NCBI GenBank assembly: GCA_963515455.1 | Contig: CAUPXP010000007.1 | Location: 19,879-83,878 of the forward strand | DNA length: 64,000 nucleotides | Direction of reading: 5' to 3' | DNA from: Streptococcus mitis | GTDB lineage: Bacteria; Bacillota; Bacilli; Lactobacillales; Streptococcaceae | In this document: positions 18,876-50,570 of the stretch, piece after piece | Position numbering within the stretch: position 1 is the stretch's first letter | Layout of the letters: every line of letters begins with the position of its first letter | Position numbers and translations under genes: made by a program | The notes under the pieces: model-generated | Told to the model about the DNA's origin: nothing | The model's database searches: none | Seen by the model: only the letters and a program-made list of their open reading frames with translations

Positions 18876-18904
18876 TTAACCATTCAGAAAAGTAATCGTA
18901 CAAA

Positions 18905-19118
18905 CTTTCAAGAGAGTCTGTGGTAGCTGAAAACAGATAAGTGATGATGATGAAAATTGGGCTGAATGTTATTTAGAATTTGAAATCATAAAAATTCGGT
19001 GAGCACACCTTACAGTGCATCTCGTTATTGCGAGACAGAGCGATAGGGAAATTCCCTATAATTGAGGTGGTACCGCGCATCGACGTCCTCACACAAGTTT
19101 TTTGTGTGAGGATTTTTT
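18905..19118 (+). promoter_or_regulatory. T-box leader (tRNA-sensing riboswitch) controlling the downstream ABC importer
   Basis: AGAGAG stem-I motif at 18911-18916. T-box sequence AATTGAGGTGGTACCGCG at about 19060-19077. A perfect intrinsic terminator follows immediately. Confidence 0.85.
19087..19118 (+). terminator. T-box attenuator terminator
   Basis: Perfect 10-bp stem CCTCACACAA/TTGTGTGAGG (19087-19096 / 19102-19111), followed by a T6 run. Confidence 0.85.
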
Positions 19119-45721: not shown

Positions 45722-47014
45722 ATGAACGAAATCAAATGTCCTAACTGTGGGGAAGTCTTTACAGTAAATGAGAGCCAGTATGCTGAACTTCTGTCTCAAG
45801 TGAGAACAGCAGAGTTTGATAAGGAATTGCACGATAGGATGAAGCAGGAACTGGCCTTGGCTGAGCAAAAGGTAATGAATGAACAACAGACCAAACTAGC
45901 TCAAAAAGACCAAGAAATTGCGCGATTACAGAGTCAAATCCAAAACTTTGATACAGAAAAAGAATTGGCCAAGAAAGAGGTTGAACAGACAAGTAATCAG
46001 GCCTTATTGGCTAAGGATAAGGAAGTACAGGCCTTGGAAAACCAATTGGCTACCTTGCGTTTGGAGCATGAAAATCAACTGCAAAAGACACTCTCTGACC
46101 TAGAAAAAGAACGGGATCAGGTTAAAAACCAGCTTCTTTTGCAGGAAAAGGAAAACGAGCTTTCTCTTGCTTCTGTCAAGCAAAACTACGAAGCACAGCT
46201 CAAGGCAGCTAGTGAACAAGTCGAATTTTATAAGAATTTCAAAGCTCAACAATCTACAAAAGCTATCGGGGAAAGTCTGGAACACTATGCAGAAAGTGAG
46301 TTTAACAAGGTCCGCAGTTTTGCCTTTCCAAATGCTTACTTTGAAAAGGATAACAAGGTTTCTGCGCGTGGGTCTAAAGGGGACTTTATCTTCCGTGAGT
46401 GTGATGAAAATGGAGTGGAAATCATTTCCATCATGTTTGAGATGAAAAATGAAGCAGATGGAACAGAGAAGAAGCACAAGAATGCAGATTTTTACAAGGA
46501 ATTGGACAAGGACCGTCGGGAGAAGAACTGTGAATATGCGGTTTTGGTGACCATGCTTGAGGCCGATAACGATTACTTTAATACAGGGATTGTTGACGTC
46601 AGCCATGAGTACGAAAAGATGTATGTGGTTCGTCCTCAATTCTTTATCCAGTTGATTGGTCTCTTACGGAATTCGGCGCTTAATTCCTTAAAATTTAAGC
46701 AGGAGTTGGCCTTGGTTCGGGAGCAAAATATCGATATTACACATTTTGAGGAAGACTTGGATGCCTTTAAGCTAGCCTTTGCCAAGAACTATAATTCAGC
46801 TTCGACTAACTTTGGCAAAGCTATCGATGAAATTGACAAGGCCATAAAACGGATGGAAGAGGTCAAGAAATTCCTAACCACATCTGAAAACCAACTCCGT
46901 CTAGCTAATAATAAATTGGAAGATGTTTCCGTCAAAAAACTAACTCGAAAAAATCCAACTATGAAAGCGAAGTTTGAAGCGCTGAAGGGGGAGTTAGAAA
47001 GCAGTGGAAAATGA
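45722..47014 (+). CDS. DUF2130-like protein: N-terminal CxxC zinc-ribbon, long coiled coil, C-terminal PD-(D/E)xK-like nuclease fold
   Basis: 430 aa starting MNEIKCPNCGEVFTV. Gln/Glu/Lys-rich heptad region. Nuclease-like motif GDFIFRE...IISIMFEMKNE (about 46378-46452). Confidence 0.8.
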   Translation: MNEIKCPNCGEVFTVNESQYAELLSQVRTAEFDKELHDRMKQELALAEQKVMNEQQTKLAQKDQEIARLQSQIQNFDTEKELAKKEVEQTSNQALLAKDKEVQALENQLATLRLEHENQLQKTLSDLEKERDQVKNQLLLQEKENELSLASVKQNYEAQLKAASEQVEFYKNFKAQQSTKAIGESLEHYAESEFNKVRSFAFPNAYFEKDNKVSARGSKGDFIFRECDENGVEIISIMFEMKNEADGTEKKHKNADFYKELDKDRREKNCEYAVLVTMLEADNDYFNTGIVDVSHEYEKMYVVRPQFFIQLIGLLRNSALNSLKFKQELALVREQNIDITHFEEDLDAFKLAFAKNYNSASTNFGKAIDEIDKAIKRMEEVKKFLTTSENQLRLANNKLEDVSVKKLTRKNPTMKAKFEALKGELESSGK

Positions 47015-47015
47015 A
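46994..47015 (+). repeat. Left copy of the direct repeat flanking the cassette (TTAGAAAGCA + GTGG + AAAATGAA)
   Basis: Compared by eye with 50577-50594. The 10-nt block and the 8-nt block are identical; the left copy carries a 4-nt insertion. Confidence 0.85.
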
Positions 47016-48674
47016 TTATTAGTATTGAATACTGAGGAAGTAAATGAGTCTGAAAATTTAAACTATGATGAGTTAGAAGAACTATTGGAACAGCAATTTA
47101 CAATGGAGTTCTCTAATCTTGAGAAATTAGAACTAGAATGTAAAGAAATTAGTTCACCGGATAAATTAGGAGATGTTGTTTTAGATGAAATTTGGAGTCA
47201 ATTTGCGAACCAAATTGGTTTAGATATGACAAGCGACACGCTTCTTAAGCAGTATAACGATAAACATCCTAATGGTTATACAAAAGAAGAGGGTGCTAAA
47301 ATAATGAAAGATAAAAGGTATACTGATGCAAATAATGCTATGAAAGAAAGGCAAAAAAATGGAAATTTAAAGGATGAATATACTGGAAAAACAATAAAAA
47401 TTAACGAAAAAGCTAATTTGGATCACGTCATACCAAGAAAACAGATTTTTGAAAACCCATGGAGGAAAATAGCAGATATTGAAACTTCTGATTTAGCCAA
47501 TAAATCAGAAAATTTGGCAGGAACTAATGAATCTCTTAATAAAAGTAAAGGCGCAAAATCTAATAGCGAGTATATAAAGAAAAGAGAAGCAAGAGAAAAA
47601 AATCTTAAAGAACAAGTTGAAAGAGCTAATAAAAAAATTGATAAGATGAATATCTCAGATGCCGAAAAGCGAAATCTTAAGGCTGAAAATAATAAAAAAT
47701 TAAATGATAAATTGGCTGCTGATTCAGATAAGATGATTAAAGTTGAAAAAAGTGCAAAGAAAGCTATGTATAAACCAATAGCAAAGAAAGCTGCAGTTAG
47801 AATGGCGAACAAGGCAGGTAAAGACGCAGTTAAAGCTATGTTTGTTGCAGCGTTATTTGGGATGTTGAAAGAAATAATGAATGCTTTGGTTCGTTTTTTT
47901 AAATCTAAAAAACGTTCGTTTGATACATTCTTAGATGAAATGAAAAATGCACTTCATTCCTTCTTTGGTAAAATTAGAGATTTTATTAAAGTGGGTGTAG
48001 ATAGTTTTGTTGGAAGCATCGTAGGAGAAATTATTGGTGCTTTCGCTGAAAAACTAAGAAAGTTACCAAATTTGGTAAAACAATTATTTGGTTCAATTAG
48101 AGAAAGTATCTCTTATCTATCAAACCCTGAAAATCAATCTCATTCTACTGCAATTAAAATTGCCCATGTTTCAAAAATTATTACATCCGCATTATTAGGT
48201 GTAGGAGCAATGTTTTTAGGAGAATATTTTGAACAGTTCTTAAATAAGATACCAGGTATGACTTTTGAAATAAAACTTCTAGGAACAATTGCTAATATTT
48301 TAGGGATGTTCTTTGCAAGTTTACTAACTGGAATCTTGGGAGCGATAATCATTAACGGACTTGATGGTTTTATATCAAGGAAACTACAAGATGAGAACAA
48401 AAAACAACAAGTTGATAAGAAGAACGAATTGCTAAGAATTCAGGATGTTCAAATTTTTGTTGCCGAGCAAAATGTTGCTGTTAAGCGAAATGATATCTTC
48501 AGTAAGATGGCTAAGAACCATCAAAAACTAAGAGAACTACTTGGCAATGTTGATGAAGAGTTTTCTAATTCAAAGATTGATTTCAAACAGCGATTATTAG
48601 CTAATGAAATTTACTTTGATGAAAAGCAAAGTGAACTTGAAGAAATGCAAAATGCATTAAACGATTTATTATAG
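47004..48674 (+). CDS. HNH (beta-beta-alpha-Me) nuclease domain protein fused to a multi-helix membrane region and a C-terminal coiled coil (cassette gene 1)
   Basis: 556 aa. GTG start 11 nt after GGGGAG. HNH motif DEYTGKTI...NLDHVIPRK...SENLAGTNESLNKSKGAKSN (aa about 124-186, nt about 47373-47561). Hydrophobic segments ITSALLGVGAMFLGEYF and LLGTIANILGMFFASLLTGILGAIIINGL. Confidence 0.7.
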   Translation: MENELLVLNTEEVNESENLNYDELEELLEQQFTMEFSNLEKLELECKEISSPDKLGDVVLDEIWSQFANQIGLDMTSDTLLKQYNDKHPNGYTKEEGAKIMKDKRYTDANNAMKERQKNGNLKDEYTGKTIKINEKANLDHVIPRKQIFENPWRKIADIETSDLANKSENLAGTNESLNKSKGAKSNSEYIKKREAREKNLKEQVERANKKIDKMNISDAEKRNLKAENNKKLNDKLAADSDKMIKVEKSAKKAMYKPIAKKAAVRMANKAGKDAVKAMFVAALFGMLKEIMNALVRFFKSKKRSFDTFLDEMKNALHSFFGKIRDFIKVGVDSFVGSIVGEIIGAFAEKLRKLPNLVKQLFGSIRESISYLSNPENQSHSTAIKIAHVSKIITSALLGVGAMFLGEYFEQFLNKIPGMTFEIKLLGTIANILGMFFASLLTGILGAIIINGLDGFISRKLQDENKKQQVDKKNELLRIQDVQIFVAEQNVAVKRNDIFSKMAKNHQKLRELLGNVDEEFSNSKIDFKQRLLANEIYFDEKQSELEEMQNALNDLL

Positions 48675-48683
48675 GAGAATGTT

Positions 48684-49484
48684 ATGTCAGAAGAATTAGA
48701 GATTCAAGTTTTAGCAAATTCTGAAAGATTTAATGAAAAAAAACAAGAGTTAAAAGCCTTTAGTGAAGAGATCCCTGAACAGTCAGATTTACCAACAGTT
48801 CCAACAGATGATCCTATGTTAGGCTTTATTGGAATGGAATATGATGTTAAGGGTAAAGATTTGAACGCTCTTACTGATGCTGTTCAAAATAGAATGATTG
48901 AACAAAATATTCACATAAAAAAGATTATTCAAGAATTTAATACTATTTACGAAACTTTCCAAATATTGGATGATGAGTATATTCAAAGTATTTCAAAATC
49001 TTTGATTGCAGCCAAAGAGGCAAATAATAAAGCTATACAGGGATTGCACGAAATAGAAGAATATCAAATAGGTAATAACAAACTATTAGATGATGTTTTT
49101 AAACAGAATAAAGATTTAATTGATATATTGAAGAAACATCATAAAAAGCTAGAAGAGTTAGAACAACTTGAAGATAAGCAAAGTGAAATTCATAATGAAA
49201 TTGATAGTTTAAAAGCGAAGCTAAAAACATTAGTGAAAATAGAAAATAGTTTTAACGATTTGCGTTTCCAAGTTGAAGAAACACAAAATAATCTTAAAAA
49301 CGATGTAGATAAGATGAATGTTCGATTAATAGAGGAAGGTAAAAATCTTACTTTAATTGTCGAGAAATTTCAAACTGAACTAGAGGAAAAACAAAAAGAG
49401 ATTAGTTTCCTTAGAAAAGGATTCTATACTCTTGGAGTCGCTGTTGTTATAATAGTATTATTTCTATTATTTAAAGGAATGTAG
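48684..49484 (+). CDS. Tail-anchored coiled-coil protein (cassette gene 2), unknown function
   Basis: 266 aa. RBS AGGAG 6 nt upstream. Heptad-rich Glu/Lys/Asn/Gln sequence. Single C-terminal TM FYTLGVAVVIIVLFLLF. Confidence 0.7.
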   Translation: MSEELEIQVLANSERFNEKKQELKAFSEEIPEQSDLPTVPTDDPMLGFIGMEYDVKGKDLNALTDAVQNRMIEQNIHIKKIIQEFNTIYETFQILDDEYIQSISKSLIAAKEANNKAIQGLHEIEEYQIGNNKLLDDVFKQNKDLIDILKKHHKKLEELEQLEDKQSEIHNEIDSLKAKLKTLVKIENSFNDLRFQVEETQNNLKNDVDKMNVRLIEEGKNLTLIVEKFQTELEEKQKEISFLRKGFYTLGVAVVIIVLFLLFKGM

Positions 49485-50570
49485 ATGATTAGTGAAACTT
49501 ATTTAAAATTGTTAAAATCGGAAGTGAAAAAACTGGATGATTTAACAAATAATACTTATGAATTGGAAATAATTCTTCAAGATATAGTTGATAATCTTAA
49601 AAATGCTGAGTTAGAATTTATAAAACGATTAGGAAACTTGACAAGTAAAGAGACATTCTCAAAAATCAAAGATAAGCAAACTAGCATATTGGAATTATTG
49701 TATAAATATCTTGGCTCTAGAGTTATTGATACAAATTATTTAATTTTGAAAGAAACAAATAATAAATCATTTGAAGAACTAGCAAATGATTTAAAGTCCT
49801 TAATAGGTTTAGAAAATGTTAAGAAAGAAATTAAAGATTTAGTAGCGTTTAATAAAGTTCAACAAAGTAGAGAAAAAATCGGTCTTAAAAAAACAAACAG
49901 AACTATGCATATGGCGTTTTTAGGTAATCCAGGTACAGGTAAAACAACAGTTGCTAGAATTGTTGGTAATATGTATCGTTCTCTAGGAATACTAAGTAAA
50001 GGTCACTTTATAGAGGCAAGTAGAACAGACTTAATAGCAGAATATCAAGGACAGACGGCTTCGAAAGTGAAGAGATTGATACAAAAAGCCAAAGGTGGTG
50101 TATTGTTTATTGATGAAGCATATAGTATTACTGAAAACGATAAAAGTGATAGTTATGGTCGGGAGTGTTTAACTGAGTTAACAAAAGCATTAGAAGACTA
50201 TCGTGATGATTTGGTGGTTATTGTTGCTGGATATGATGAATTGATGAAAAAATTTTTTGAATCTAATCCTGGGTTAAAATCAAGATTTAATTATTTTATT
50301 ACGTTTGAAGATTATACGGTGAACCAAATGTTTGATATTTTTCTTTCATATTGCAAAAATGAAGAGTACATTTTGCATGATTCTGCAAAAGAAAAATTAA
50401 AAAAATATTTAGAATTACATAGTAGCAATCCTGAAAATAAAAATGCAAATGGGCGATTTGTAAGAAATGTATTTGACAGTATAATTATGAACCAAGCAAT
50501 AAGATTAGCCACACTATCTTTTGTTACAAAAGATAATTACATTACGATTCTTGAAGAAGATATTTCATGA
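49485..50570 (+). CDS. AAA+ ATPase of the CbbX/SpoVK/EccA clade (cassette gene 3)
   Basis: 361 aa. Walker A GNPGTGKTT (49923-49949) and Walker B GGVLFIDEAYS (D210/E211, about 50094-50126). Family-typical LIGLENVKKEI...VAGY...NPGLKSRF. The ATG abuts the upstream TAG. Confidence 0.85.
   Translation: MISETYLKLLKSEVKKLDDLTNNTYELEIILQDIVDNLKNAELEFIKRLGNLTSKETFSKIKDKQTSILELLYKYLGSRVIDTNYLILKETNNKSFEELANDLKSLIGLENVKKEIKDLVAFNKVQQSREKIGLKKTNRTMHMAFLGNPGTGKTTVARIVGNMYRSLGILSKGHFIEASRTDLIAEYQGQTASKVKRLIQKAKGGVLFIDEAYSITENDKSDSYGRECLTELTKALEDYRDDLVVIVAGYDELMKKFFESNPGLKSRFNYFITFEDYTVNQMFDIFLSYCKNEEYILHDSAKEKLKKYLELHSSNPENKNANGRFVRNVFDSIIMNQAIRLATLSFVTKDNYITILEEDIS

Follow-up and report, generated by a model that had tools for sequence, protein, structure and literature searches.

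Within a 64,000-nucleotide (nt) stretch of Streptococcus mitis DNA (contig CAUPXP010000007.1, positions 19,879 to 83,878 of the forward strand; hereafter, the window), an open reading frame (ORF) of 556 amino acids (aa) at 47004..48674 (+) encodes a predicted HNH nuclease joined to a membrane hairpin and a helical tail. It is followed on the same strand by genes for a tail-anchored coiled-coil protein and an AAA+ ATPase. We propose, partly by analogy, that these three genes form a horizontally acquired module protecting the cell against phage or other invading DNA and that the nuclease is its effector, acting in the manner of the membrane-bound nuclease SNIPE and under the control of the ATPase; we give this reading a probability of about 0.55. 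The joining of nuclease and membrane parts is functional rather than accidental, as judged from its conservation across the family. An effector role in a conflict system also fits the low guanine-plus-cytosine (GC) content of the module, the defence and mobile-element genes that adjoin its relatives, and the membership of the nuclease in a candidate defence family of PADLOC.

The HNH core (aa 120-190; 47361..47573, +) is of the Cas9/HNH_4 type and lacks zinc-binding cysteines. Its motif comprises D124-E-Y-T-G, D140-H141, N170 and N179-K-S-K182, the very residues, with H141 numbered on the full ORF, that had been likened to the Cas9 pattern in a preliminary description of this DNA. In an alignment of 77 full-length relatives sharing ~20 to 40% identity with the window nuclease, these positions were kept almost throughout (D124 in 74, D140 in 73, H141 in 75, N166 in 73, N170 in 76, N179 in 76, and K182 in 73), and the only other near-invariant columns were P424 and G443. 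Near-invariance of an Asp, His, Asn, Asn, and Lys set at this level of divergence places the motif far beyond chance. In an hhalign register against an SpCas9 sequence entered by hand, D140-H141 (47421..47426, +; predicted metal ligand and general base) stands opposite SpCas9 D839-H840. The predicted structural Asn (N170), metal-binding Asn (N179), and conserved Lys (K182), together at 47511..47549 (+), stand opposite N854, N863, and K866.

A Foldseek search of the full-length model against the PDB returned only long-helix noise (best E, 0.5), and aa 88-262 were therefore modelled separately. The AlphaFold2 model of this region (predicted local distance difference test [pLDDT] score, 96.2; predicted template modelling score, 0.87) contains strands at 137-141 and 171-175 followed by a helix at 176-182, the strand-strand-helix arrangement of a beta-beta-alpha-Me fold. 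Its best Foldseek matches in the PDB were the HNH domains of NmeCas9, GeoCas9, and ThermoCas9, followed by SspE-CTD and the Gme HNH nickase; the match to GeoCas9 (8f43) had a probability of 0.95 and a root mean square deviation of 3.5 Å over 86 columns. Profile searches of the nuclease protein against NCBIfam and PHROGs gave no match, sequence searches of the PDB with the full protein and with the family profile gave nothing relevant, and the Pfam HNH_4 model reached E<0.01 in just 3 of the 77 relatives. By its conserved residues, the nuclease is a divergent HNH subfamily that the Pfam model does not capture. Taken with the model, these residues indicate that the domain is a genuine Cas9-type HNH nuclease and probably an active one. 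Its likeness to the Cas9 HNH and HNH_4 domains lies in the cysteine-less core with a D-H...N...N-x-x-K motif, and the spacing N-x3-T-x4-N-x2-K is common to the window nuclease and SpCas9 (N854...N863..K866). In contrast to Cas9, the domain has an insertion of ~15 residues between the DH strand and the first Asn and is not embedded in a RuvC/guide-RNA scaffold.

The core is followed by a Lys/Arg-rich helical stalk (aa 191-273; 47574..47822, +) of three long helices packed on it with pLDDT values of >90. Lys and Arg make up 32% of aa 180-270, in line with the Lys-rich linker noted in the preliminary description, and its basic charge suggests that the stalk may bind DNA. Two amphipathic helices, likewise noted there, come next. 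The first (aa 274-299; 47823..47900, +) has a mean Kyte-Doolittle (KD) hydropathy of 1.20, a hydrophobic moment of 0.92, and five charged residues. The second (aa 326-348, VGSIVGEIIGAFA; 47979..48047, +) is glycine-zipper-like, and AlphaFold2 confidence falls below 50 at aa 332-348. With mean KD values of ~1.2 and four to five charges each, neither is a clear transmembrane (TM) helix.

Our TM calls and topology rest on KD hydropathy averaged over 19 residues, with a TM helix taken as ~20 uncharged hydrophobic residues at KD >= 1.6 that are conserved in relatives. Such a segment lies at aa 426-453, uncharged throughout, within TM helix 2 (aa 426-456; 48279..48371, +), where hydropathy peaks at 2.43. 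TM helix 1 (aa 384-408; 48153..48227, +) has its hydrophobic core at aa 392-406 and, with a KD value of 1.55, is a probable TM helix. The preliminary description had counted at least two strongly hydrophobic helices; the second is definite and the first only probable. The family-mean KD peaks are 1.6 at the TM1 position and 2.28 at TM2, the near-invariant G443 lies inside TM2, and the near-invariant P424 lies in the short loop between the two helices. The same layout of HNH domain and TM hairpin was found in homologues from E. coli, Citrobacter, Lactococcus, small plasmids, and phages, and the hairpin is conserved family-wide. The absence of a signal peptide, the highly charged N-terminal 380 residues, and the nature of the partners, one a tail-anchored protein and the other a soluble ATPase, point to an N-in orientation. 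Two TM helices would then place the tail in the cytoplasm as well, and we infer that the HNH domain, the basic stalk, and the tail are probably all cytoplasmic (N-in, C-in).

The C-terminal tail (aa 457-556; 48372..48671, +) was modelled by AlphaFold2 as a single long helix running on from TM2, with helices assigned at 429-522 and 527-555. It had been described as a coiled coil of ~100 aa. The long predicted helix stands; the heptad periodicity does not, as the 3.5-residue signal over aa 460-556 was matched by 22% of shuffles and is not significant. The neighbouring 266-aa protein, used as a positive control, beat all 2000 shuffles in the same test. In the model, then, the tail is helical, and a coiled coil is not demonstrated.

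The gene has a GTG start preceded by a Shine-Dalgarno-like GGGGGAG, and this start overlaps the stop of the upstream DUF2130 gene by 11 nt. The position formerly given as the start, 47373, is the codon of D124, the first residue of the motif; the gene starts 369 nt upstream of it. The N-terminal region (aa 1-90; 47004..47273, +) is acidic (net charge, -18) and helical (helices at 21-48 and 53-71), and it carries a motif, P52..L55-G..W..Q-F..Q..G, that is kept family-wide. Proteins of 556 aa that are identical or 92 to 100% identical are called in many assemblies of the Streptococcus mitis/oralis group, under the name 'hypothetical protein' or the mistaken name 'cation diffusion facilitator family transporter'. 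As a side observation, the public names given across the family ('cation diffusion facilitator family transporter', 'cobalamin adenosyltransferase', 'ATPase', and 'membrane protein') are not backed by any profile used here.

The fusion had been thought unusual, but an exhaustive HMMER search of 1.84 billion representatives returned 598 clusters (50% identity) at E<=1e-3, with 310 at E<=1e-10 and members mostly 520 to 620 aa long. The family is also already catalogued: the PADLOC profile PDC-M40B (PDLC04630) matched the window nuclease at E=1.1e-10 (aa 96-514 of 556; profile positions 88-499 of 547). It matched a homologue on an E. coli IncF/IncHI plasmid from end to end (1.2e-101), and a PDC-M40C gene follows that homologue. 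PDCs are candidates picked for being embedded in BREX, DISARM, or type I restriction-modification loci (Payne et al., preprint, 10.1101/2024.01.29.577857), and PDC-M40 is a candidate three-family cassette, A>>B>>C, with 79 instances (10.1101/2024.01.29.577857). PDC-M40B and the window nuclease are of one protein family and share the HNH domain and TM hairpin, whereas the PDC-M40A and PDC-M40C profiles matched neither neighbour of the nuclease in the window at E<=1; its partners are instead an AAA+ ATPase of the CbbX type and another kind of coiled-coil protein. On these profile matches, the window nuclease is a PDC-M40B family member encoded in a system distinct from PDC-M40.

The nuclease and its two partners travel together. 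A scan of GTDB species genomes with a six-sequence alignment gave 80 loci, which were then checked for the triad by tblastn with the window genes. Nuclease, coiled-coil, and AAA+ genes occurred together in every streptococcal locus and in 36 diverse non-streptococcal loci, always with the AAA+ gene downstream of the nuclease gene. The latter included Gracilibacillus, Bacillus, Paenibacillus, Sporosarcina, Lachnospiraceae, Peptostreptococcus, Phascolarctobacterium, Fusobacteria, Treponema socranskii, and Victivallaceae. In these triads the middle gene, a homologue or equivalent of the one in the window, encodes ~390 aa or is split into genes for ~120 and ~370 aa. The triad was also present on a Lactococcus lactis plasmid and with nuclease relatives at only ~30% identity. 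As a whole it matches no system in PADLOC-DB v2.0.0, the one defence library searched.

The two partner genes are the most informative clue to how the nuclease is controlled. The first (48684..49484, +) begins 9 nt past the nuclease gene and encodes the 266-aa protein that is a coiled coil by the heptad test; its C-terminal tail anchor lies at aa 247-263 (nt 49422-49472). The second (49485..50570, +), immediately after it, encodes a 361-aa AAA+ ATPase of the CbbX/SpoVK/EccA type in which the Walker A (GNPGTGKT; 49923-49946, +) and Walker B (LFIDEAY; 50103-50123, +) motifs are intact. This protein matched the Pfam families AAA (8e-19) and AAA_lid_6 (2e-15) and the NCBIfam models spore_V_K (1e-85), CbbX (4e-70), and EccA (2e-65), each under its equivalog cut-off. 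Over aa 98-360, its closest solved relatives are CbbX (3zuh/3syl; 2e-59) and EccA1 (5e-43), and the preceding ~97 aa form a private N-terminal domain. Since the scores fall under the equivalog cut-offs, the partner is by profile related to SpoVK, CbbX, and EccA at the family level rather than orthologous to any of them. With CbbX (the red-type Rubisco activase), SpoVK, and EccA it shares the Walker motifs and AAA_lid_6; the N-terminal domain is its own. Since Rubisco, sporulation, and an ESX system are, to our knowledge, all lacking in streptococci, the ATPase would be a paralogue recruited to a new client. Separately, aa 13-350, including most of the private domain, matched phrog_4339 (E=3e-35), a 552-position phage family with unassigned function; phages thus carry a related ATPase.

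The EccA-like ATPase prompted us to consider a secreted toxin of the type VII secretion system (T7SS)/LXG type. This was rejected: only the generic CbbX-type AAA core resembles EccA, the adjacent genes include none of a T7SS, and the HNH domain lies away from the C-terminal tip. The 11-nt overlap likewise prompted us to consider the upstream DUF2130 gene (45722..47014; N-terminal zinc ribbon, coiled coil, and DUF2130 domain) as a fourth component. This too was rejected: the gene is not in any non-streptococcal locus, and its divergence in S. sanguinis is like that of the core flank truB (75 to 76%) and unlike that of the module. DUF2130 therefore seems to be a neighbour at the insertion site and not a component. 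A promoter scan of the locus was uninformative, with a count equal to the shuffle expectation. Elsewhere in the window, the only Rfam family is a T-box leader (RF00230, 111 bits) at 18876..19093 (+), and no tRNA genes were found in the window.

The contexts of the operon and of the wider family include mobile-element and defence-associated genes. Two genes on each side of the operon, pooled over diverse loci, gave 126 proteins from the contexts sampled. Among them were phage integrases (5), WYL regulators (5), serine recombinases (3), and helicases, as well as Gabija GajA/GajB, a type I restriction enzyme, a CBASS cyclase, MADS components, and several other PADLOC candidates. By tblastn, the nuclease family was present on 74 PLSDB plasmid records, mostly from Klebsiella, Photobacterium, and Escherichia. 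A Citrobacter homologue lies directly downstream of JukA, with a WYL gene, and the Juk preprint mentions uncharacterised HNH proteins adjoining jukA. On a metagenomic Rep3/MobC small plasmid (L087:4882-9979; also L088 and L089), the gene directly after that of an 873-aa family member encodes a dynamin-like GTPase of 819 aa with matches to the Eleos LeoBC/LeoA profiles. This arrangement links the nuclease family to membrane-remodelling GTPases. Homologues on Vibrio and Duffyella plasmids are preceded by a PDC-M09A-like membrane protein and followed by a YkgJ-family gene, with WYL and TerB genes upstream on the Vibrio plasmid.

A pair of PDC-M09A-like and HNH-TM genes is also carried by 260-kb Aeromonas jumbo phages (LAh10, NC_070956.1, L094:2757-5353; D3, D6, and D9). 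LAh10 gp080 matched the window HNH domain in Foldseek (E=3e-8; template modelling score, 0.72) and has its own TM hairpin. In the public record, gp080 is mislabelled 'cobalamin adenosyltransferase' and its PDC-M09A-like neighbour 'chemotaxis protein'. Across these arrangements, the HNH-TM protein behaves, as far as gene order tells, as a swappable effector joined to differing NTPase or sensor modules. The locus in the window differs from Juk (JukA sensor, variable effectors) and Eleos (LeoA/LeoBC), whose JukA or dynamin components adjoin homologues of the nuclease, in having neither component; its NTPase is of the CbbX/EccA class.

Within the streptococci, the module looks foreign, horizontally acquired, and dispensable, to judge from composition, divergence, and decay. 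The GC content of its three genes is 28 to 31%, versus 41 to 46% in DUF2130, truB, and metY. Its position between DUF2130 and truB is fixed in many species of the mitis and sanguinis groups, and these two genes flank the module only in streptococci. In S. sanguinis KLC04R (L032), the module proteins are 80 to 94% identical to those of the window, compared with just 75 to 76% for DUF2130 and truB, which suggests recombinational exchange between streptococcal species at a conserved site. Over the streptococci as a whole, the module proteins average 88 to 91% identity versus 93 to 98.5% for the flanks. No hypervariable sensor patch was found among 31 streptococcal orthologues. Six genomes (L078-L083), among them S. 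oralis subsp. tigurinus, S. infantis SK970, and S. halitosis, share the same internal deletion, equivalent to ~47712..50358, which fuses aa 1-236 of the nuclease in frame to the AAA+ lid (from ~aa 292). The remnant is an open ORF of 303 to 332 aa (e.g., L080:8001-8999) in which the HNH domain is intact but untethered. The shared deletion and decay indicate that the module is dispensable.

The proposed functional parallel is SNIPE (PD-lambda-1), a GIY-YIG nuclease bound to the membrane that cuts phage DNA in the course of its injection (Saxton et al., Nature 2026, PMC13190303). With its TM segment removed, SNIPE becomes toxic and cuts the nucleoid; in the intact enzyme, attachment to the membrane guards against self-cleavage and also puts the nuclease where phage DNA enters (PMC13190303). 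A nuclease kept inactive by membrane sequestration, one of the two alternatives in the preliminary description, now has in SNIPE a direct experimental precedent. The window nuclease would resemble it in features that are here predicted from sequence: a membrane anchor, a probably cytoplasm-facing catalytic domain, and a basic, possibly DNA-binding region by the nuclease. SNIPE combines an N-terminal TM segment, DUF4041, and a GIY-YIG domain in one polypeptide; in contrast, the window system has an HNH domain, a C-terminal hairpin anchor, and two conserved partner genes, one of them for an ATPase. No GIY-YIG or DUF4041 domain was found in the window nuclease with Pfam or PADLOC and no PD-Lambda-1 match was obtained; the window nuclease is hence not a SNIPE member, and the two nucleases are unrelated in sequence.

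By this analogy, the C-terminal half of the window nuclease would insert in the cytoplasmic membrane as a helical hairpin. The tether would hold a non-specific nuclease away from the nucleoid and would also set it where foreign DNA enters, so that invading DNA is cut at or near the membrane. The AAA+ ATPase and the tail-anchored coiled-coil protein may license or restrain the nuclease; for example, upon sensing of infection the ATPase might engage the C-terminal tail of the nuclease, and the coiled-coil protein might be a membrane adaptor or sensor that gates the nuclease together with the ATPase. ATPases of this class remodel their client proteins through traction on a terminal tail; CbbX, for one, threads a terminal tail of its client Rubisco. 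We infer each of the elements of this scheme, that is, the defence phenotype, the nuclease activity, the topology, the trigger, and the role of the ATPase.

Several observations weigh against the proposed module. The Pfam HNH_4 model (PF13395) matched the nuclease with E=0.0085 and 16.5 bits, under the 22-bit gathering cut-off, and the Foldseek E-values for the HNH fold are weak (0.16 to 1). TM1 is borderline in the window protein, although several relatives exceed 1.8, and the net charges before TM1 (-1), in the loop (0), and after TM2 (+2) amount to a weak positive-inside signal. If TM2 alone spanned the membrane, the tail would lie outside the cell, unable to meet the ATPase. The neighbour counts are raw and stand without a background rate for comparison. 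A strong terminator lies past metY and none from DUF2130 through the module to truB; together with the fixed streptococcal site, this means that the genes could be a long-resident set with a housekeeping role. The persistence of a soluble HNH remnant in six genomes fits poorly with a highly toxic untethered nuclease unless the remnant is unexpressed or inactive. Finally, the module and PDC-M40 alike are candidates known from sequence alone.

A broader reading, which we advance tentatively and hold less probable than the defence module itself, takes the membrane-HNH protein as a portable effector cassette that bacteria, and jumbo phages too, would combine with at least five unrelated control modules in a new kind of immune module. 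These would be a CbbX-type AAA+ ATPase with a coiled-coil protein, an Eleos-like dynamin, JukA, a PDC-M09A-like protein, and PDC-M40C. In the streptococcal version, perturbation of the membrane by infection would lead the AAA+ unfoldase to switch the nuclease on mechanically, either by a pull on the nuclease tail or by extraction of the nuclease from the bilayer, and ATP-driven remodelling would thus be coupled to spatially restricted DNA cleavage.

An abortive-infection dual effector, a notion already raised in the preliminary description, appears rather unlikely. Here the HNH domain would degrade DNA at the same time as the glycine-zipper and amphipathic helices oligomerise into a pore or otherwise damage the membrane, and the infected cell would die; activation would come from the ATPase and a coiled-coil sensor. 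Two amphipathic helices beside the TM hairpin, the small-residue (G/A/S) spacing in TM2, and the near-invariance of G443 and P424 would suit a pore. The low AlphaFold2 confidence at aa 332-348 is as would be seen for a state-changing segment, relatives are paired with membrane-remodelling dynamin-like GTPases, and TM proteins are common among defence effectors. However, no pore-forming family was matched by sequence or fold in Pfam, the PDB, or Foldseek, an intact conserved nuclease would be unneeded if the membrane were the target, and the TM segment of SNIPE shows that such an anchor on a nuclease can serve purely for localisation. We rank the membrane-sequestered nuclease above the dual effector, although nothing here separates the two.

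We find it improbable that the genes serve a cellular role outside defence, namely, in handling DNA at the membrane of these naturally competent streptococci, for instance when DNA enters, segregates, or is damaged, with the ATPase as a chaperone. The fixed chromosomal site between DUF2130 and truB in many mitis- and sanguinis-group species and the apparent cotranscription with the flanks would agree with such a role. EndA, a membrane-anchored beta-beta-alpha-Me nuclease for pneumococcal DNA uptake, offers a precedent. Set against this are the foreign composition of the module, its loss or decay in several lineages, the occurrence of the triad in unrelated contexts (noncompetent taxa, plasmids, and sites beside integrases and defence genes), and the family member carried by jumbo phages. 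A little less probable still is a selfish addiction or competition module of mobile elements, with the membrane nuclease as toxin and the partners as antidote or delivery aid. The frequency of the family on plasmids, the relaxase/MobC and toxin-antitoxin genes that adjoin it on small plasmids, and the integrases and recombinases nearby would be expected of one. Yet the nuclease has no secretion signal, no adjacent secretion-system genes, and no conserved small immunity-like gene beside it, and the immediate streptococcal flanks hold no recognisable mobile-element genes. Least probable of all is a catalytically dead HNH-like domain that only binds DNA or acts as a scaffold in a mainly membrane or structural protein: the subthreshold HNH_4 score, the statistically weak structural matches, and the soluble remnant tolerated in some genomes would allow it, but all expected catalytic residues are kept in >94% of the 77 distant relatives, as is typical of active enzymes.

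Among established defence systems, the defence module proposed here has partial parallels. In Zorya type II (ZorAB with the HNH protein ZorE), an HNH nuclease is coupled to a membrane complex whose long coiled-coil tail serves in signalling, and Septu (the ATPase PtuA with the HNH protein PtuB) places an HNH nuclease under ATPase regulation. In both, unlike here, the nuclease is a separate soluble protein. The PADLOC profiles for ZorA/B, ZorE, PtuA, and PtuB gave no significant match in the window; the only match to ZorA was a weak, coiled-coil one to the middle protein of the Lactococcus triad. In the literature searched, PDC-M40 appeared in no main text found, and no description of an HNH-TM-AAA/SpoVK system or of a membrane-anchored HNH family was found. 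The nuclease family is unmentioned in the lactococcal plasmidome paper, the abortive infection review, the S. thermophilus defence paper, and the DefensePredictor paper.

SNIPE has only recently shown that a membrane-localised nuclease can distinguish self from non-self by where it sits rather than by sequence, and this family would be a second, unrelated, and much more modular solution. It is widespread, reaching from Gram-positive commensals of the human mouth and gut to enterobacterial resistance plasmids and jumbo phages. The triad offers a tractable setting in which to ask how membrane proteins of bacterial immunity may be controlled by a classic-clade AAA+ remodeller. In the naturally transformable streptococci of the mitis group, the presence and decay of the module bear on gene flow.

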